A DNA stretch of 64,000 nucleotides from Streptococcaceae bacterium (GCA_031254295.1 JAIRUS010000046.1:2973-66972), one strand, 5' to 3'. Shown: positions 1-8,502, counted from the first letter of the stretch. A program made the numbers and translations. Notes: generated from the sequence alone by a model not told the origin.

Positions 1-451
1 CCATGATCACGATCGCAGGATTTTCGGTGAGGAAGAGATAGCTTTCAAACTCTCCTCCGTCGGAGTAAATGACGGAAAGTCGACTGCAAGGTGCATCAGA
101 TGAAGCAGCGGTCGGAACAATTACGGCAGGAACATGCGCGTAATAAGCAACGGCCTTTGCGCTATCTAAAGTTTTTCCTCCTCCAATTCCGATGATTACA
201 TCAGCCCCATCAAGAGCCGCAAGGTGTCTGTCAATTTCATTCTTTGAACATTCTCCCCCAAAGAGATTAAAGGTTTGAGGAAGATTTTGACTTATAAAAC
301 TTGATAAAATATCAGCTTGATAAGTCTTAGCGATAAATGGATCAACCAAAATATAAGCTTTTTTTCCTTTTAGACTGGAATAATTAGCCAATTTTGTGAT
401 CTCGCCGTCTCCGATAATGAAGCTACCAGGAGAGCAAATGATTTTTGTCAT
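1..451 (-). CDS. gldA: Glycerol dehydrogenase (iron-containing ADH family); 5' part only, runs off the window edge
   Basis: Manual translation: MTKIICSPGSFIIG...VIIGIGGGKTLDSAKAVAYYAHVPAVIVPTAASSDAPCSRLSVIYSDGGEFESYLFLTENPAIVIM. ATG at 451 with AGAAAGG RBS. Not in the ORF track. Confidence 0.9.
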   Translation of the reverse strand, partial: MTKIICSPGSFIIGDGEITKLANYSSLKGKKAYILVDPFIAKTYQADILSSFISQNLPQTFNLFGGECSKNEIDRHLAALDGADVIIGIGGGKTLDSAKAVAYYAHVPAVIVPTAASSDAPCSRLSVIYSDGGEFESYLFLTENPAIVIM

Positions 452-667
452 GTGAAAAGCCTTTCTTTTTTGTATCTTGGCTGTATTATAATACTTAATC
501 AGTTAAAAGACAAAGATATTAAAAATGTTTTCACATGTTCAAAAGGTTGTAACCAGCCCAAACTCGATTATTCGTCTGTGTGTGGTAAACTCGTGTTCTA
601 TAACACAAAAAAGTGTACAAGAGCAATTTTTGCAACTATAGAATAATCGCTAAAGAATACGTTGAAT

Positions 668-681
668 TGAAAGCGGTTTTT
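668..681 (+). promoter_or_regulatory. Candidate cre (CcpA) site upstream of the PTS gene
   Basis: TGAAAGCGGTTTTT, a partial match to TGWAARCGYTWNCA. Confidence 0.5.
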
Positions 682-722
682 TGATAATATTTGACCAAGT
701 CATTAATAGGAGAAGGAGAAAT

Positions 723-2828
723 ATGATGCGGTTAAAAAAGGAGCAAGCTGAGGCGAAACTTTACGCACCTGTTTCAGGTGAGATGGTTCCCTTAGATAAG
801 GTTTCAGATCAAACATTTGCATCTAAAATGCTGGGAGACGGATTTGCGATTGAACCTTCGGATAGAAAAATTGTGAGTCCCGTATCTGGAACAATCAGTG
901 TGCAACAGGGACATGCGATTGGGATTCAAAGTGAGGAAGGACTTGAAATTCTGATTCACTTGGGAATTGATACAGTAGCTTTAAAAGGGACTCCATTCAA
1001 TATCAAAGCTCGGGTTGGAGATAAAGTTCAGGTGGGGGCACTTCTTGGAGAAGTGGACTGGGAGCAAGTAGACGCAGCATCTATCCCTAAAACTACACTT
1101 GTAATCATTACTAACACGGCAGATAAACTTGAGAAAATTTCAGCTGCTACAGGAAAAGTTATCGCTGGAAAAGAAGCAGCCAGATGTGAATTGAAACAGT
1201 CAAAATCAGAAGTTAAAAAGGCTGGAAAGGCAACGGGTTACCTTCAAAAATTAGGTAAGTCTCTCATGATGCCGATTCCGATCATTGCGGCAGCAGGAAT
1301 TTTCTTGGGGCTTGCGAGTGTTCTGCAAAATCCCAATATTGTAGGCCCAGCTTTTGTGGCCAATCTTGATGCGCAAAATGTCATTGGATTTATCAAAACG
1401 ATTATCGCAGCCTTATTTGCGAATTTGCCGATTTTGTTTGCAGTTTCAGTGACTATCGGTTTGGCCAAAGCTGAAAAAGCCAATGCAGCCTTTTCATCCG
1501 TCGTTGCCTTCTTGTTGATGCATGTCACGATTAGTTACATGCTGAGCCTTAAGGGAATCACAGCAGCAACTTATTCGGTTGATTTGTTAGTGAAGAGTGG
1601 GCAGTCAGTTTTAGAGGCAACAAAGGCTGTTTCCATGTATACGAGTGTCCTCGGTGTCTTTTCTTTCAATATGAATGTCTTTGGCGGCGTACTCGCTGGT
1701 GTGCTTGCGGCGGCTATTCATAACCGCTTCTATAAGACAGAGCTTCCAATGGCTATTTCTTATTTTGGCGGCAAACGGCTTGTGCCAATTATGACCACAC
1801 TTTTTGCACCAGTCCTTGGTGTGATTCTTTACTTTGTCTGGCCCTTCATTGGGACAGGCATTCAGAGTCTCGGAGAAATTATTGCCTCAGCTGGGCTGTT
1901 TGGAACCTTTATCTTTGGAATGCTGGAGCGTTTGCTCATCCCTACAGGCCTGCACAATATCCTCAATCAAATGGTTCGTTTCACACCAATTGGGGGTTCA
2001 GCGACCATTGACGGCAAACAATTTGTTGGCGCTTTGAATATTTTCAACGCTTTACTTGCTCAGGGGCATCCTAATATGGAAATCATGCGTTCGGCAACGC
2101 GCTTCCTTGCTCAAGGTAAGATTCCTTACATGATGTTTGGACTTCCAGCGGCTGCGTTAGCAATGTACCGCACGGCTTTACCAGAAAATAAGAAAAAAGT
2201 GGGCGCTCTGCTCTTTGCAGCAGCCTTGACGTCATTTACTACAGGGATTACAGAGCCCATTGAATTTCTGTTTATCTTCATCTCTCCAATTCTGTTTATA
2301 TTCCATGCAATCATGGGGGGCTTGGCCTTCATGCTCACAAACTTATTGGGAGTCGCGATTGGAAATGTTCAAGGGGGAGCCATTGATTTGGGAGTGTTCG
2401 GAGTGCTTCGTGGACTTGATACGCGCTGGTACTTTGAGCTTCTTCTAGGAGCCATTTATGCGCCAGTTTATTATTTCACATTCAAAAAAGTGATTATGTG
2501 GAAAAATCTGAAAACGCCAGGTCGTGAAGTAGAAGAAGATTTGGGAAGTTCCGCCGTCATGGACAACGCTCCAAAATTAACAGGAGACCTAGGACATAAA
2601 ATAATTGCCGCTCTGGGTGGTTTAGGAAATGTTGAATCCATTGACAATTGTTTCACGCGTCTTCGTCTAGTTTTGAATGATGCAAGCAAAATTGACGAAG
2701 AAACTCTGAAATCAACGGGAGCAGTCGGAATCGTCAAGTTGGATTCTAAAAATATTCAAGTTGTTTACGGACCACAAGTTGAATCTATCGCCTTGAAAGT
2801 AAAAGAGGCGGCAGGTCTGTCAGAATAA
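723..2828 (+). CDS. Glucose-family PTS enzyme II, domain order IIA-IIC-IIB
   Basis: IIA motif LIHLGIDTVAL at the N-terminus, IIC (LQKLGKSLMMP...GITEPIEF), C-terminal IIB (IDNCFTRLRL). ATG 723/726 follows an AGGAGAAGGAG RBS; the track start at 681 is too early. Confidence 0.92.
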   Translation: MMRLKKEQAEAKLYAPVSGEMVPLDKVSDQTFASKMLGDGFAIEPSDRKIVSPVSGTISVQQGHAIGIQSEEGLEILIHLGIDTVALKGTPFNIKARVGDKVQVGALLGEVDWEQVDAASIPKTTLVIITNTADKLEKISAATGKVIAGKEAARCELKQSKSEVKKAGKATGYLQKLGKSLMMPIPIIAAAGIFLGLASVLQNPNIVGPAFVANLDAQNVIGFIKTIIAALFANLPILFAVSVTIGLAKAEKANAAFSSVVAFLLMHVTISYMLSLKGITAATYSVDLLVKSGQSVLEATKAVSMYTSVLGVFSFNMNVFGGVLAGVLAAAIHNRFYKTELPMAISYFGGKRLVPIMTTLFAPVLGVILYFVWPFIGTGIQSLGEIIASAGLFGTFIFGMLERLLIPTGLHNILNQMVRFTPIGGSATIDGKQFVGALNIFNALLAQGHPNMEIMRSATRFLAQGKIPYMMFGLPAAALAMYRTALPENKKKVGALLFAAALTSFTTGITEPIEFLFIFISPILFIFHAIMGGLAFMLTNLLGVAIGNVQGGAIDLGVFGVLRGLDTRWYFELLLGAIYAPVYYFTFKKVIMWKNLKTPGREVEEDLGSSAVMDNAPKLTGDLGHKIIAALGGLGNVESIDNCFTRLRLVLNDASKIDEETLKSTGAVGIVKLDSKNIQVVYGPQVESIALKVKEAAGLSE

Positions 2829-2950
2829 ATCAAAGAAGCACGGGACGTCCGACCCACGTGCTTCTAGGGGGAATCCCTATGGGACCTGTCCTATGATTTG
2901 AAGAAGGAAGGAAAGCAGAAATAAGCTTGTTTCCGCCTCTCTTCCATCGT

Positions 2951-2976
2951 AAAAACGCGACTCGCGTCGCGTTTTT
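2951..2976. terminator. Bidirectional intrinsic terminator between the PTS gene and rpiR
   Basis: AAAAACGCGAC-TCGC-GTCGCGTTTTT. Confidence 0.8.
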
Positions 2977-3709
2977 AATTATAAGTCGCAAGATATTCCC
3001 TAAAAATAAGGCTCACGATATAGGTGAAGGAGAGGCGACTGGCCATGTCTAGTCCATTGATGAGTGTATTATCCGTCATCGCATAGAGTTGAAGATCTGA
3101 AAGCTTGGACAGGCTATTCTGCGAGAATCCAGTGATTGAGATGACTTTGGCAGAGTTTGCTTTGGCAATTGTCGCTGGAATTAAGACATTTTCTTGTTCT
3201 CCAGAAATTGAAAAACTAATCAGTAAATCTTTTTGAGTTAATTTTTTCGCCGCATATTTGACCATGTGGGGATCGACAAAAAGTTGAGAATTTTTACCTA
3301 AAACTTCCAGATAAAAATGAAATTCTTCAGCAGGAAAACGTGAAAGACCTAAGCCGTCCACCAAAATTTTATCAGACTCATGAATGAGGACTAGAACTTG
3401 TTTGATAAGCTCATCATTGAGTAACTGCTTGGTTTTGATAATTTGCTCATCGAGGCTAGTCGTTTCAAGCAGAGTCTGACCATCTTGTCGCGCAGCCTTA
3501 AGATTTTCCCTAAAGCTAGTATAGCCAGAAAAACCTAGCTTTTTAACCAGTCTTATAATTGTATTCGGACTGGTAAAATGTTTGACTGCAATGTCTCTAA
3601 CTGTAGGACTTTTTACTTCGGAGCGATTGTCAAGCAAATCTTGCAAAATCTCTTCTTCAAAGGAATTTAATTTATTCCGATTAGCTTTTAACACATCATA
3701 AAAGAACAT
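2975..3709 (-). CDS. RpiR/MurR-family regulator (HTH + SIS)
   Basis: TVRDIAVKHFTSPNTIIRLVKKLGFSGY; SIS motif ISFSISGE. Likely ATG at 3709 with GAGGT RBS. Confidence 0.9.
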   Translation of the reverse strand: MFFYDVLKANRNKLNSFEEEILQDLLDNRSEVKSPTVRDIAVKHFTSPNTIIRLVKKLGFSGYTSFRENLKAARQDGQTLLETTSLDEQIIKTKQLLNDELIKQVLVLIHESDKILVDGLGLSRFPAEEFHFYLEVLGKNSQLFVDPHMVKYAAKKLTQKDLLISFSISGEQENVLIPATIAKANSAKVISITGFSQNSLSKLSDLQLYAMTDNTLINGLDMASRLSFTYIVSLIFREYLATYN

Positions 3710-3721
3710 AAGGACCTCACC

Positions 3722-5374
3722 ATGAAATTTATAGAACAATTATATCAGAAATTAGCAGAAGTCTACTCAGGCCAAAAGCTAGAAGAAGCAAGAATAGCCT
3801 TTGAAGAGCTGGTTGAGGACTACTCAAAGCAGACTTTTTCAGAACGTGCACCCTTATCAGAAAAAAATGTTTATTTGATTACTTATGGGGATGCTTTTGT
3901 AGACGGCGATAGAAAAGGCTTATCAGTTCTTAAGGACGTTGTAGATAATAAACTGTCGGATACAGTCACAGATATTCATTTGCTTCCAATGTTTCCTTAT
4001 ACGAGCGATGATGGTTTTTCAGTAAGGGATTATGAGCAAATTAATTCTATCCTTGGAGATTGGAGGGATGTTAAGAGGCTTTCAGATGATTATCGCCTAA
4101 TGTTTGATTTTGTGGCCAACCATATGTCGCAATCAAGTGACTGGTTTCAGAAATTTTTGAATCAAGAGCCAGATTTTTCGGAGGCTTTCATCAAATTTGA
4201 TGAAAAGTTTGATAGCTCAAATGTCACACGCCCGAGGGTTTCTCCACTTTTCCATACTTATAAAAATGGACTGAAGGTTTGGACGACTTTTTCAGAGGAT
4301 CAGGTAGATGTTAATGCACAAGAGGTGAAGATGCTGGTAAGGCTGACTAAGATTCTGCTTGACTATGCAGCCAAGGGAGCAAGCAGCATTAGATTAGACG
4401 CAATTGGCTTCTTATGGAAAGAATCAGGCACGACTTGTATGCATCGGCCGCAAACTCATGCGATCATTCAGCTTTGGCGCTTACTGCTTGAAGAATTTGC
4501 ACCGAATACTCAAATAATAACAGAAACTAATGTGCCACATAAGGACAACGTTGCTTACTTTGGTAACGGAAATAATGAAGCGCAGCAAGTCTATCAATTC
4601 CCACTGCCTCCACTAGTATTACATACTTTTATCACAGGAAATAGCGAAAAGTTATCTGGTTGGGCAAAAGGCATAGAGCATGTGAGCCAAACAGCTAGTT
4701 ACTTTAATTTTTTAGCGAGTCATGATGGAATTGGATTACGTCCGACGGAAGGGATTTTATCAGACGAGGAGCGAGCACAACTTGTCGAACGCGTACTGGA
4801 AAACGGAGGTAAAGTTTCCTATAAAAATAATCCAGATGGCTCAGAATCAGTTTATGAGATGAATATCAATTTTTCCGAGGCGTTGAAAGAGGGAGAAAAT
4901 GATAAGTGGGTAACAGATAAAATGCTCGCTGCACATCATATTCTGCTTTCTGTAATTGGAGTTCCGGCTATTTATTATCACTCAATTTTTGGTTCAAAAA
5001 ATGATTACAAAGGCTTAAAGGAATCTGGGATAAATCGGCGAATAAATCGTGAAAAATTAGATATGCAGCAATTGTTTAACAGCTTAGAAGACGATGTTTA
5101 TCGAAAGGAGATATACCAAGGCATTCAGCGAATGATTAGAGTTCGGCAAAAAGAAATTGCCTTCAATCCTTATGGAAGCCAGAAGATTCTTGACTTGGGG
5201 AGTGGATGCTTTGGCGTGTTGAGAGAATTTAAAGGGCAACAAATTATTTGTGTCACGAATGTGACAAAGGAAAAACAAACATTGGGTGATTATGCGGGCT
5301 ATGATCTCATTTCTGAAAGGAAAGTTCAAGAACTTGGAGTCTATGAAACAGTTTGGATAAAGGAAGTCAGATGA
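3722..5374 (+). CDS. GH13_18 sucrose-phosphorylase-family enzyme, YcjM/glucosylglycerate-phosphorylase-like
   Basis: Motifs LITYGD, HLLPMFPYTSDDGFS, FDFVANH, RLDAIGFLWKESGT, ITETNVPHKDN, NFLASHDGIG, YEMNINF closely follow E. coli YcjM as I recall it. Confidence 0.85.
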   Translation: MKFIEQLYQKLAEVYSGQKLEEARIAFEELVEDYSKQTFSERAPLSEKNVYLITYGDAFVDGDRKGLSVLKDVVDNKLSDTVTDIHLLPMFPYTSDDGFSVRDYEQINSILGDWRDVKRLSDDYRLMFDFVANHMSQSSDWFQKFLNQEPDFSEAFIKFDEKFDSSNVTRPRVSPLFHTYKNGLKVWTTFSEDQVDVNAQEVKMLVRLTKILLDYAAKGASSIRLDAIGFLWKESGTTCMHRPQTHAIIQLWRLLLEEFAPNTQIITETNVPHKDNVAYFGNGNNEAQQVYQFPLPPLVLHTFITGNSEKLSGWAKGIEHVSQTASYFNFLASHDGIGLRPTEGILSDEERAQLVERVLENGGKVSYKNNPDGSESVYEMNINFSEALKEGENDKWVTDKMLAAHHILLSVIGVPAIYYHSIFGSKNDYKGLKESGINRRINREKLDMQQLFNSLEDDVYRKEIYQGIQRMIRVRQKEIAFNPYGSQKILDLGSGCFGVLREFKGQQIICVTNVTKEKQTLGDYAGYDLISERKVQELGVYETVWIKEVR

Positions 5375-6180
5375 TGCATCTTAAAATGCTAGTCACCGAT
5401 ATGGACGGAACTTTCTTGCGAGAAGATAAAAGCTATGATGAGAAACGATTTGAAAAAATCTTAATAGAGTTAGAGAAACGAGGTATTATTTTTGTTGTCG
5501 CCAGTGGAAATCAAATTTTCCGCCTCAAAGAATACTTTCAGAACTTTTCAAACAGAATTATTTATATTGCAGAAAACGGAGCCCAAGTATGGATAGACAA
5601 TGAGATGCTTTTTTCAGAAAAACTGGCAAGAGAACTCGTGCTTAATGTAAGCTGCGCAATTCTAGAACACCCCAAAATGGAAGGGAGAAAAGTTCTTCTT
5701 TCTGGCGAAAAGGGAGCTTACCTCTTGAACTCTGCCGATGAAGCCTATAAGAAAAAAATGAGTCGTTTTTATCGACAAATAAACTATGTCGAGGATTTCT
5801 CAAAGGTAGATGACGAGATTGTCAAGATAACAATGAACCTCCAAAATGAAAACTTAGGTGAAGTTGAAAAGTTTTTGAATACAATTCAGGGAGTAAGAGC
5901 AACAACAAGTGGCTTCCAGTCAATAGATGTAATCAAATCTGGAATTTCGAAAGCTAGTAGAATAAAATTTTTGGAAGACTATTTCAAAATTTCCTCGAAA
6001 GAAATTGCAGCCTTTGGAGATAATCTGAATGATAAAGAAATGCTAATGAGAGTAGCCTACCCATTTGCGACAGAAAATGCCGTTAACGCCATAAAAGAAA
6101 TAGCCCGAGAAGTTACCCCCTCTTGTGAAGAACAAGGAGTCTTAACCAAAATTGAAGAACTCCTAAAAAGCAATATATAG
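5371..6180 (+). CDS. Cof-type HAD-IIB sugar-phosphate phosphatase
   Basis: DMDGTFL, ASGN, GISKA, FGDNLNDKEM. ATGA overlap with the upstream stop. Confidence 0.9.
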   Translation: MMHLKMLVTDMDGTFLREDKSYDEKRFEKILIELEKRGIIFVVASGNQIFRLKEYFQNFSNRIIYIAENGAQVWIDNEMLFSEKLARELVLNVSCAILEHPKMEGRKVLLSGEKGAYLLNSADEAYKKKMSRFYRQINYVEDFSKVDDEIVKITMNLQNENLGEVEKFLNTIQGVRATTSGFQSIDVIKSGISKASRIKFLEDYFKISSKEIAAFGDNLNDKEMLMRVAYPFATENAVNAIKEIAREVTPSCEEQGVLTKIEELLKSNI

Positions 6181-6213
6181 AGTTAATAGAAAACGAAGAA
6201 ATAAGAATGCCCC

Positions 6214-7113
6214 TTATTTCTTAAAGCCATACTTCATCAAAACTTTTCGCTTTCTTTCAACTGAAACTTCAGTATAAATTTCAGTTGTCGTAATGCTTGA
6301 ATGTCCGAGAAGTTCTTGAATATCTCGCAGATTGGCTCCATTATCAAGTAAGCCCGTTGCAAAACCATGACGCAAGTAATGGGGAGTTGCAGCAGGATTT
6401 ACTCTGGCTAAAAGTTTATATTTAGAAAAAATATTTTCAATCGAAAAAATAGACAGCCTTTTCCCGTATTTATTGAGGAAAAAGGCTTTTTCATGCTCGC
6501 TGGGAAAATATTGTTTTCTCATGCTGAGATAAGCTTTGAGGCTACTTTTATCCTTTTTATGGAGAATGTAAAGAATGCGTTCCTTGCGATTTTTACCATG
6601 AATGACGATTTTTCCACTTTGTGCATCATAGTCGCCGAGTCGCATATTGCTGACCTCGCTGATACGTAAGCCAATGCTAACTAAAATATGCAAAATCGCA
6701 AGATTACGTATCTGATCTCGAAGTTTCTTAGGAGAAAGAGAAACAATGTTTTCAGCAGCCGAAAGCAGATTTTGGGTTTCACGAACGGTTAAAGTTCGAG
6801 GGAGCCTTTTTCCCTTACGAATCGCAATATGAGGGAGAGAGGAATCACTTATCAGCTTTTGCTCAAGCAAAAACTTATGAAAAAATTTAAGTGTAATCAA
6901 TTTTCTCTGCTTGGTACTGGCTTTATAATCCTCCTTTCGCTCAACAAATTCCATATAGTCAGCAATCCCTGAGACCAAGGTAAGTTGATGTTCAATGCAA
7001 AAATCTGAAAAAAGATTTAAATCAAAAGCATAGGATTTTAAACTACTAACAGATAAATTTTCCAATTCCTTTTTCTGAATAAAAGTTTCAATAAGTTTTT
7101 CCTTGTAGATCAT
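6214..7113 (-). CDS. Tyrosine recombinase/integrase (XerC/D-like)
   Basis: Complete catalytic set: GLRISE (R), HGKNRKER (K), PHYLRHGFAT (HxxR), LLGH, TEIYT (Y). Confidence 0.92.
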   Translation of the reverse strand: MIYKEKLIETFIQKKELENLSVSSLKSYAFDLNLFSDFCIEHQLTLVSGIADYMEFVERKEDYKASTKQRKLITLKFFHKFLLEQKLISDSSLPHIAIRKGKRLPRTLTVRETQNLLSAAENIVSLSPKKLRDQIRNLAILHILVSIGLRISEVSNMRLGDYDAQSGKIVIHGKNRKERILYILHKKDKSSLKAYLSMRKQYFPSEHEKAFFLNKYGKRLSIFSIENIFSKYKLLARVNPAATPHYLRHGFATGLLDNGANLRDIQELLGHSSITTTEIYTEVSVERKRKVLMKYGFKK

Positions 7114-7170
7114 AGAGTTCTTTCTAATCGAGAGTAATCTGCGCTGAAAGCGCTAATAATATGTTACAAT

Positions 7171-7203
7171 AATCTCAAAATAACTACATATTATTTTGAG
7201 ATT
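7171..7203. repeat. Perfect 13-bp inverted repeat with 7-bp spacer; candidate recombinase site or operator
   Basis: AATCTCAAAATAA-CTACATA-TTATTTTGAGATT, 57 bp upstream of the recombinase start. Confidence 0.75.
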
Positions 7204-7221
7204 CCACAGCAACTATTTGCC

Positions 7222-7250
7222 TTGACCCTCCCCCAAAAAAGTGATAAACT
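7222..7250 (+). promoter_or_regulatory. Sigma-A promoter of the riboswitch-deaminase transcript
   Basis: TTGACC-17 bp-TAAACT with TG extension. Confidence 0.75.
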
Positions 7251-7257
7251 AAGTCAA

Positions 7258-7324
7258 CTTATTTATACCCAGAATATGGCTGGGCGTCTCTACCTCGCAA
7301 CCAATGGAAATGCGGGACAATAAG
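7258..7324 (+). ncRNA. Purine riboswitch aptamer, guanine-type discriminator
   Basis: P1 CTTATT/AATAAG; P2 CCCAG/CTGGG with loop AATATGG; J2/3 GTCTCTAC; P3 CTCGCA/TGCGGG; C at 7318. Confidence 0.85.
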
Positions 7325-7475
7325 GTTGTTTTTTAACAGCTTTTTTGATAATCCAGTTCGCCCAAGCAGAAAACTAGGAAAAAAGATGACTTGGAACCTG
7401 CGCTTTGCGCAGAACCACAAGCTCCCTATTTTTCTACGTTTTCTATCATGCTAGGGCTAACTTTTTATGTAAAGT

Positions 7476-7504
7476 CGCCCTATCTTTTTGGATAGGGCGT
7501 TTTT
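7476..7504 (+). terminator. Leader (attenuator) terminator just upstream of the deaminase start
   Basis: CGCCCTATC-TTTTTG-GATAGGGCG-TTTTT. Confidence 0.75.
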
Positions 7505-7515
7505 GGAAGGAAATT

Positions 7516-8502
7516 ATGGAAAACAAAAAGTCGAACGTTTTAACAGATCTTGCAGAGCTTCATATGCATATTTCGTCTTCGGTCACACCGGAGATTCTTT
7601 GGGATTTGGCACATGAGCAGGGGATGAAGTTGCCTGCGCGTGATTATTTCGAGTTTTCAAGGCTTGTCACAATTGATGGGCAGGTTGGCTATGAGGATTA
7701 CTTGAAGATGTATGATTTACTCGAAGAGATTCAGTCAACGCCTGAGTCGATGTTTCATTTGGCTGAGTCTGTACCGACACATCTCTATCAGCATGATAAT
7801 ATCGACCTAGTCGAGATTCGTATGAATCCGATGTTGCGTTCGCGTGGTGGGAAGATTGATCTTGACCATATCATCGTGTATACTTTGCAAGGCCTTGAAC
7901 GGGCAAGTTTGAAGTTCCCAAAGCTCCGCACAGGTTTGATTTTATCCATGGATCGACGCTTTAGTAAAGAAGTCAATACGATTATTGTAGATAAGGCCAT
8001 CAAATACAAGGATCGTGGCGTTGTCGGGATTGATTTGGCAGGCCCAATTGATCCGAAGTTCTCAATTGACGATATCGCAGGTCTGTCAAAACGTATCCAT
8101 GCTGAGGGGCTTGGTTTGACGATTCATACTGGAGAGGCAACTAAAGCGGATGAGATGTGGGAGGTTGTGCAAAAGCTTCGCCCAAATCGGATTGGGCATG
8201 GCGTGGCGGCTGTGCATGATGAAAATTTGATGAAGTTTTTGGTGGATCATAATATCATTCTGGAAACTTGTCCCTCTTCAAACTTGCAAACACTTGCAGT
8301 CAAGGATTTGGAAGAGATGAAATTCAACTATCGGACCTTGATTGACCACGGTGTGCCTTTTACTATCAATACTGATGGCCCGATTCTGCAAAATACGACT
8401 CTGCCTAAGGAATACCAGATGTTGCTGGATAATAACATCTTGACACTTGAAGAGGCAAAGGCTGCCAATGCGCGCTCTCATGTGGCAACTTTTATCAAAT
8501 GA
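7516..8502 (+). CDS. Adenosine/AMP-deaminase-family metallohydrolase
   Basis: ELHMH, TIHTGE, RIGHG, LETCPSSN, NTDGP. ATG 7516 after AAGGA; the track start lies inside the leader. Confidence 0.85.
   Translation: MENKKSNVLTDLAELHMHISSSVTPEILWDLAHEQGMKLPARDYFEFSRLVTIDGQVGYEDYLKMYDLLEEIQSTPESMFHLAESVPTHLYQHDNIDLVEIRMNPMLRSRGGKIDLDHIIVYTLQGLERASLKFPKLRTGLILSMDRRFSKEVNTIIVDKAIKYKDRGVVGIDLAGPIDPKFSIDDIAGLSKRIHAEGLGLTIHTGEATKADEMWEVVQKLRPNRIGHGVAAVHDENLMKFLVDHNIILETCPSSNLQTLAVKDLEEMKFNYRTLIDHGVPFTINTDGPILQNTTLPKEYQMLLDNNILTLEEAKAANARSHVATFIK

Follow-up and report, generated by a model that had tools for sequence, protein, structure and literature searches.

What is an intact tyrosine recombinase gene doing beside a single copy of what appears to be its own recombination site? 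The question is raised by a stretch of 64,000 nucleotides from a Streptococcaceae bacterium (GCA_031254295.1, JAIRUS010000046.1:2973-66972), called the window in the following, in which the gene for a Xer-like tyrosine recombinase (P0001) is accompanied by a perfect inverted repeat of two 13-bp arms around a 7-bp spacer, AATCTCAAAATAA-CTACATA-TTATTTTGAGATT, which begins 57 bp from the recombinase start codon. Positions of these and neighbouring features are collected in Table 1. We propose, with a probability of about 0.72, that gene and repeat together are the cargo-less remnant of a switch that inverts whole genes, and that the lone site is likely the emptied base of this switch.

The repeat is difficult to ascribe to chance. 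In first-order Markov simulations of the window, perfect repeats with arms of at least 13 bp and spacers of 3-12 bp were expected 0.03 times per window, while they were observed at five places, the other four of which resemble terminators. A terminator as explanation of the repeat itself was ruled out, as both a GC-rich stem and a T run are absent; a scan of 6150-7450 gave no terminator-like site, and the repeat folded as RNA gives an A/U-rich structure (-11.1 kcal/mol) without a U tail. A second copy of the site was found neither in the window, with 2 mismatches allowed per arm, nor in the 2.12-Mb assembly (181 contigs, 96% complete) with up to 3 mismatches, and looser scans of the assembly for the core, for half-sites and for the spacer likewise gave no partner, only the single site.

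The sequence of the repeat recurs with the gene in other bacteria. The DNA upstream of P0001 homologues was collected and aligned, which gave 15 distinct loci of type I, a name used here where the recombinase gene is read divergently from a site upstream of it. In 13 of these 15 loci, from at least five genera, a site built in the same way lies 43-69 bp before the recombinase start codon; the homologues at the site-bearing loci are 49-68% identical to P0001 and come from Listeria, Enterococcus, Lactococcus, Vagococcus and metagenomes. The family consensus is AACCTCCAAATAA-N7-TTATTTnnnGnTT, with an almost invariant arm distant from the gene and a looser arm near it. The window has the AAATAA-N7-TTATT core at a distance within the family range, and each of its arms matches the consensus arm at 11 of 13 positions; the two deviating positions are mirrored, the arms read GAGA, and GGAGG is gone. 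Among 401 genomes of the order Lactobacillales, nine contain the exact pattern ACCTCCAAATAA-N7-TTATT, and seven of the nine belong to the ten genomes that carry a P0001 relative at E <= 1e-60, and a control with the pattern written backwards gave one match in the 401 genomes. Because the sequence recurs with the gene both across genera and in the genome sample, we read the repeat as the enzyme's own site, and the comparative evidence argues strongly that it is the cognate site of the adjacent recombinase.

The recombinase itself appears to be fully preserved. The P0001 open reading frame (ORF) starts with ATG and has no internal stops, and its product has a SAM-like domain at the N-terminus and matches Pfam Phage_integrase (118.6 bits). 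In an alignment of 28 family proteins the catalytic set is complete (6 of 6; R150, K174, H245, R248, H271 and Y280), and all 54 family-invariant residues are kept, the R-K-H-R-H-Y set included. The best curated profile matches are XerC (201.4 bits, cut-off 335.15) and XerD (199.2 bits, cut-off 329.6), both below the cut-off, so that P0001 does not qualify as a dimer-resolution enzyme by either profile. The scores against the profiles of XerS (107.8 bits, cut-off 267), of the IntI subfamily (97.7 bits, cut-off 265, in a match that spans the C-terminal box only) and of FimB/FimE-type invertases (59.1 bits, cut-off 221) are below their cut-offs as well, and the solved structure nearest by sequence is that of E. 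coli XerD. P0001 is 49-68% identical to members of a group that we call the cassette-invertase family, which makes it an orthologue of these proteins. Its relatives in the protein collection are 43-68% identical and about 296-303 amino acids (aa) long, originate from Lactococcus, Enterococcus, Listeria, Vagococcus, Pediococcus, Miniphocaeibacter and metagenomes and, where named, are annotated merely as "tyrosine-type recombinase/integrase".

The presence of relatives in ten of the 401 Lactobacillales genomes shows a sporadic distribution. A search of five further genomes of the genus gave no P0001 orthologue, the best matches there (E about 1e-14) being XerS-like. Scanning genome contigs with P0001 returned only distant Xer proteins from Clostridia (at most 41% identity) and no close relatives, and in a scan of metagenome contigs with the family alignment none of 80 loci had the site, the back-translated patterns being generic Xer motifs. 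The same genome encodes a genuine XerS on contig C45 (L023, 1462-2658, minus strand; 502.4 bits against the cut-off of 267). A difSL-like sequence, TTTCCGAAAAACTATAATTTTCTTGA, precedes the XerS gene and lies inside the annotated 5' extension of a 398-aa ORF, and the real XerS start codon is probably further downstream than this ORF implies. With a genuine XerS and a difSL-like sequence on C45, chromosome dimer resolution is already provided for, and by these comparisons P0001 is to be regarded as an accessory recombinase, not as the host's dimer-resolution enzyme.

What such an enzyme may act upon can be seen in its relatives. A motif scan revealed paired inverted sites with reverse-complementary spacers in eight type I loci, where they are 1.6-3.8 kb apart, and in one locus of type II, a subgroup of 41-48% identity in which the site overlaps the 3' end of the recombinase gene. 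The segment between the paired sites holds two convergent cargo genes, the start codons of which lie 2-11 nt (typically 2-5) past the inner arms, and the arms supply GGAGG. The distal sites have two perfect consensus arms and are consequently palindromes except for the spacer. Both orientations of the segment occur in relatives, which shows past inversion: L. monocytogenes (L047) and a Listeria genome (G198, L063) differ by a natural inversion with breakpoints at the sites, and the same is found between the Enterococcus genomes G320 and G226, where the segment is 96% identical and reversed and both flanks are collinear.

These observations are consistent with a switch in which a fixed platform, made up of the recombinase gene, an outward-facing extended -10 promoter and the proximal site, would be combined with a second, inverted site at the distance given above and with two convergent genes between the sites that take their ribosome binding site (RBS) from the inner arms. 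The leader would run from the fixed promoter through the site, and inversion would swap the gene behind the promoter. A candidate for this promoter is the block at the proximal arm beside the recombinase gene, which is conserved as tATT(g/a)TAtCATA, or TATGATAYAAT on the other strand. Its variants are TATGATACAAT in L043, L099 and L065, TATGATATAAT in L047, L063, L064 and L066, TATGGTATACT in L044 and TGCTATAAT in L185; the block in the window, TATGTTACAAT, fits the same pattern; it directly adjoins the site and is oriented so that transcription from it would cross the site and leave the recombinase gene behind. We infer that the block acts as a promoter; the -35/-10 promoter scan used here gives no score to promoters of the extended -10 kind.

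The cargo varies between loci. An SHMT-like protein is paired with a STAND-type NTPase (NACHT/TPR, about 810 aa) in Listeria, Enterococcus and L. petauri, and this pair is probably an undescribed conflict system. An ATP-grasp enzyme is accompanied by an 800-aa AAA_16-type ATPase, for which size and position suggest a STAND-like nature, on a plasmid-like L. lactis contig, and two different methyltransferase pairs occur in Enterococcus and Vagococcus. A type II locus of the Enterococcus group (G303, L068 6067-8221) carries a Thoeris cassette, with convergent ThsA and ThsB genes between inverted sites; its ThsA is a SIR2-STALD protein (PADLOC, E = 3.7e-100), and a TIR domain is present in the adjoining ThsB. 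Thoeris depends on ThsA and ThsB together, which leaves the gain from flipping puzzling. The SHMT-like/STAND pair lies at 2127-5942 in L047, 9162-12949 in L063, 1134-4933 in L044 and 1207-4931 in L046; the SHMT-like pyridoxal phosphate (PLP) enzyme has a weak match to Pfam SHMT (49.6 bits), and the pair is without PADLOC matches. Several short-read contigs end at or inside a site (from independent samples, L099/L100 and L101 at position 1 and L067 and L184 at their ends, and further C57 and C44 of G411), which fits mixed orientations or assembly breaks induced by the repeats and is only suggestive. In the literature searched, no description of the switch family or of its site was found, and absence there is no proof of novelty; Milman et al. 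2023 (PMC9881135) makes no mention of Listeria, Enterococcus or Thoeris.

An earlier note on this DNA, made from the sequence alone, agrees well with much of this. It had described an intact-looking gene of XerC/D type, for which the ORF, the Pfam domains and the full catalytic set give confirmation, and a perfect 13-7-13 repeat 57 bp upstream of the gene, which is present exactly as described. Its view that the repeat, being AT-rich and lacking a U-tail, is not a terminator was upheld by the terminator scan and the RNA fold, and the absence of a second copy from the window held at 2 mismatches per arm. That the repeat is the enzyme's recombination site, as the note proposed, is supported by the same site in the same place at 13 of the 15 homologous loci and by the inversion crossover in relatives. 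The suggestion that a partner might lie to the left of position 1 has to be given up, since none was found on the whole contig or in the assembly.

Compared with the complete switch, the window holds the parts of the platform, namely the recombinase gene, the outward promoter candidate and one site. A second site is missing from window, contig and assembly, and cargo is missing as well, the site being flanked by the recombinase gene and a riboswitch operon. When 12 cargo proteins of relatives were used in tblastn against the genome, only a weak SHMT match was obtained (25% identity, contig C181), which is probably a housekeeping enzyme. The spacer and the arms of the lone site may tell how this state arose. 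Read towards the gene, proximal spacers of the relatives have the form YYnnrTA (TCCGATA, CTAAATA, TTCGATA, TCAAATA, TTGTATA, TTAAATA, TTGCGTA and TTCAATA), and those of the distal sites are the reverse complement, TAYnnrA. The spacer in the window, read towards the recombinase gene, is TATGTAG, which is the distal form and opposite to that of the relatives' proximal sites, and the arms in the window are perfectly symmetrical, as they are in distal sites. Inversion was excluded as the cause of the flipped spacer, because conservative recombination keeps the half-site and the spacer polarity with its flank. If the distal and the proximal site instead crossed over, the cassette would be removed, the two outer arms would be kept, and either spacer could be left. 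Since the spacer polarity is flipped and the arms are symmetrical, we take the solo site for a scar of cassette loss, that is, a site that would have originated by deletion.

Both types of scar predicted by cassette loss can be recognised by sequence in relatives. The locus L043 (66% identity) has a solo site with a proximal-type spacer; at the solo site of L185 (62-63% identity; 5843-6797) the spacer, TATTCGA, is of the distal type, and the outward promoter block mentioned above is kept. In L185 the recombinase gene is split into ORFs of 122 and 170 aa, and the locus looks like the decay of an emptied platform. Solo sites occur in type II too, in L069, L070 and L183 (genomes G380, G194 and G240). 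An orphan palindromic site, AACCTCCAAATAA-TAGGCAA-TTATTTGGAGGTT, was also noticed at L182 7709-7741 (G159), and no recombinase homologue was found within the 18 kb examined around it.

A number of points weigh against the origin of the locus from a complete switch. The assembly is incomplete and fragmented, and a partner site may sit in the unassembled DNA. Binding, cleavage and inversion by the enzyme are predictions from sequence comparison. The orientations of the segment differ between species and not within one culture, which is a sign of past inversion and not of current activity. At two homologous loci, L003 and L053, the 129-148 bp before the start codon contain no site. The two mirrored deviations in the arms of the window and the loss of GGAGG are not predicted by the deletion model, and these changes could instead reflect a lineage that has always been without cargo, or a site and an enzyme that co-evolved afterwards. 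A promoter in the distal flank is also possible, and the switch may then shift expression ratios instead of making a strict choice between two genes, which bears on the Thoeris cassette. The mirrored arm changes were considered as strong evidence of selection as well, and this was dropped, as one mirrored pair suffices when the comparison is made with arms of the L043 type, with a chance of about 1 in 40. The two site-less homologues (L003/L072 of genome G011, and L053) are 53% and 55% identical to P0001; one shares a 3-kb contig with an adjacent phage-type integrase of 449 aa, and the other lies near the apparent end of another ORF at a contig end.

The alternatives have to be judged against the same data. 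The earlier note had taken the site for the right end of a mobile catabolic island, and we find it improbable that the recombinase inserted the gldA-PTS-RpiR-GH13-HAD block, or is able to excise it, with the repeat as its right att site. The comparison with strains lacking the cluster, which the note had called for, came out in favour of an island in one half: in the closest relative, G001, whose deaminase is 94% identical, this locus lacks the block from gldA to the recombinase (contig C51 2338-10175, about 7.8 kb), synteny breaks at the site, and homology starts at 7220, 17 bp beyond it. The GC content of the right part of the block (about 3300-7200, recombinase included) is also low, at 0.35-0.38, with a stretch near 4200-4800 of up to 0.43, and that of the PTS part is 0.42-0.45, equal to the deaminase side. 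The other half of the expectation, a matching site at the left end, was not borne out: no match to the arms with up to 3 mismatches anywhere in the assembly carries the spacer or a second arm, no spacer copy turned up around the left border (contig C51 about 2240-2340) or in the rest of the assembly, and this border is an ordinary bidirectional terminator. The GH13 cluster occurs, moreover, in 10 of the 151 genomes of the family (nine besides this one) and at different places, and the five of these genomes that were also covered by the recombinase search (G002, G004, G010, G019 and G021) have no orthologue of P0001, while homologous recombinases are found in many unrelated contexts where site pairs, if present, are inverted and flank a small cassette. 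The synteny break is as well explained by the platform as a separate insertion of about 1 kb (6181-7203) beside an older or independent acquisition, and GC content fails to separate insertion of the platform from acquisition of the cluster. The claim of an island end is not retained. The cluster (window 1-6180 and contig C51 1-2972) stands in place of a 467-aa gene of G001, which ends there about 25 bp before the riboswitch promoter; to the left of the block, the contig and the G001 neighbourhood share an SDR gene and a 192-aa gene. Somewhat more credible than the island, and still unlikely, is a live docking platform, both integron and inverton, that captures promoterless two-gene cassettes, largely for defence, and then flips them, so that the empty site would be an acceptor state and not a scar. 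It would account for one conserved platform being combined with at least five unrelated cargo pairs at junctions exactly at the sites, for the recurrence of cargo-less platforms in several genomes and for the intact recombinase in the window. Integration of a circle at one site would yield direct sites, however, whereas every observed pair is inverted; circular cassettes were not seen, and the split recombinase gene of the solo platform in L185 fits decay after loss.

Two further explanations can, in our opinion, be given hardly any weight. One is that gene and site form a further dif-like module for dimer resolution, similar in kind to XerS/difSL, for which XerC and XerD as best profile matches could speak, as could the inner ATAA-N7-TTAT of the site, which resembles dif cores. 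Such a module would also have the gene adjoining its own site, as in XerS/difSL (PMC2731167, PMC2965235), but the genome already has a genuine XerS with difSL, the family is sporadic and lacking in the five congeneric genomes, the relatives hold two inverted sites around cargo, and the XerC, XerD and XerS scores are far under their cut-offs. Just as improbable is that the repeat is the operator of an unrelated regulator of the riboswitch/deaminase operon, or a chance hairpin. It is true that the repeat is located 18 bp upstream of the -35 hexamer of this operon, but G001 and G004 have the same riboswitch and deaminase operon with no such repeat upstream, and the sequence accompanies the recombinase gene across genera; a chance hairpin is opposed by the low expectation in the simulations.

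If the locus is the emptied base of an inversion switch, as we prefer to read it, there is with a single site nothing for the enzyme to invert here, and the locus is therefore probably inactive as a switch in this genome. The remaining site would serve as a binding site for the recombinase. The sole plausible -35/-10 pair of the recombinase gene, read from the sequence, is TTATTT-16-TATTAT on the minus strand and is overlapped by the site, which would also overlap the start region of the outward promoter, so that bound enzyme could repress both; binding and autoregulation by the recombinase at the solo site may thus be what is left of its function. The outward promoter would now aim through the site into the riboswitch/deaminase operon, which has its own promoter. 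A short GC-rich repeat in the recombinase leader (Table 1) has counterparts in the nearest relatives, where short GC-rich direct repeats with varied spacing are found at the same place (GGCGC-TAT-GGCGC in L101, AGCGT-GAA-AGCGT in L043 and AACGC-A-AACGC in L099).

Table 1. Features in and next to the recombinase locus, in window positions.
Feature	Position	Strand	Basis and remarks
Xer-like tyrosine recombinase gene (P0001), intact, 299 aa, cassette-invertase family	6214-7113	minus	ORF and translation, Pfam, homology
GCGCT-GAAA-GCGCT, a short GC-rich repeat located in the leader of the recombinase gene	7141-7154	no strand	Read from the sequence
Candidate extended -10 promoter TATGTTACAAT, outward-facing	7160-7170	+	Conserved block; TG 7162-7163, TACAAT 7165-7170
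Solo 13-7-13 core site	7171-7203	no strand	Perfect repeat with homology to the family site, single copy in the genome; spacer CTACATA 7184-7190 between arms 7171-7183 and 7191-7203
Promoter of the neighbouring operon, TTGACC-17-TAAACT with TG, outside the element	7222-7250	+	Promoter scan
Purine riboswitch of the deaminase-family gene	7239-7340	+	Rfam RF00167, 54.9 bits, gathering score 37
Adenosine-deaminase-family gene	7405-8502		Pfam A_deaminase; downstream of the riboswitch

The main value of this instance is its minimal form together with the evidence for cassette loss. It offers a clean view of the fixed platform of the switch family, reduced to the enzyme gene, an outward promoter candidate and one site, and the solo sites of both spacer polarities give a testable model for the loss, and perhaps the gain, of cassettes. 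In well-studied genera the family carries cargo of defence type, namely Thoeris ThsA/ThsB at one Enterococcus locus and pairs with a STAND NTPase in Listeria, Enterococcus and Lactococcus. Provided that the switch operates in the proposed way, some defence systems of these bacteria would be phase-variable, which would bear on heterogeneity in phage resistance and on the silence of defence genes in some cultures. Should a docking platform prove to be the true explanation after all, its acceptor state would explain why, in Listeria, Enterococcus and Lactococcus, the same junctions hold unrelated cargo. It is also conceivable that the 33-bp site and the small recombinase could be used as an orthogonal recombination tool in Gram-positive bacteria.

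The switch can in some respects be compared to several known systems, of which the vpma/Xer1 system of M. agalactiae and the vsp system of M. bovis are the closest in function. In the vpma system, sites in 5' leaders are recombined by Xer1 so that a unique promoter reads another gene (PMC2268961). The Mycoplasma systems (vpma/Xer1 and vsp/Mbr) share with the switch an adjacent Xer-like recombinase, one fixed promoter and sites in the 5' leaders, but they have many paralogous surface-protein genes and many sites, whereas the family has two unrelated convergent genes, often of defence type, and two sites. The RBS inside the site arm is a trait of the cassette-invertase family, unlike Mycoplasma, and in the window the comparison is limited to one site with no genes to swap. 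In the XerS/difSL system of streptococci and lactococci a single Xer-type gene adjoins the site of its product, which measures about 31-33 bp and is AT-rich in the centre (PMC2731167, PMC2965235), and the layout is alike; P0001 differs in being accessory and sporadic and in that the sites of its relatives are paired around cargo.

Promoter invertons, such as E. coli fimS with FimB/FimE and those of Bacteroides and C. difficile, bring about phase variation with the same combination of tyrosine recombinase, short inverted repeats and adjacent gene. In these the promoter is flipped and the genes stay, whereas in the cassette-invertase family the genes would be flipped and the promoter is fixed. 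The pdif modules of Acinetobacter are small gene modules bounded by inverted Xer-type sites, which occur in both orientations and in varied contexts; they use the XerC/XerD of the host and, unlike the family described here, have no dedicated adjacent recombinase and no fixed promoter. A likeness also exists to integrons (intI, Pc and attI, with In0 as the empty form), in which a recombinase gene divergent from its site, an outward promoter, exchanged unrelated cargo and platforms without cargo are likewise found. The family differs from integrons in having no folded sites of the attC type, and where integrons hold an array of directly repeated cassettes, it has two cargo genes as a unit flanked by inverted sites.

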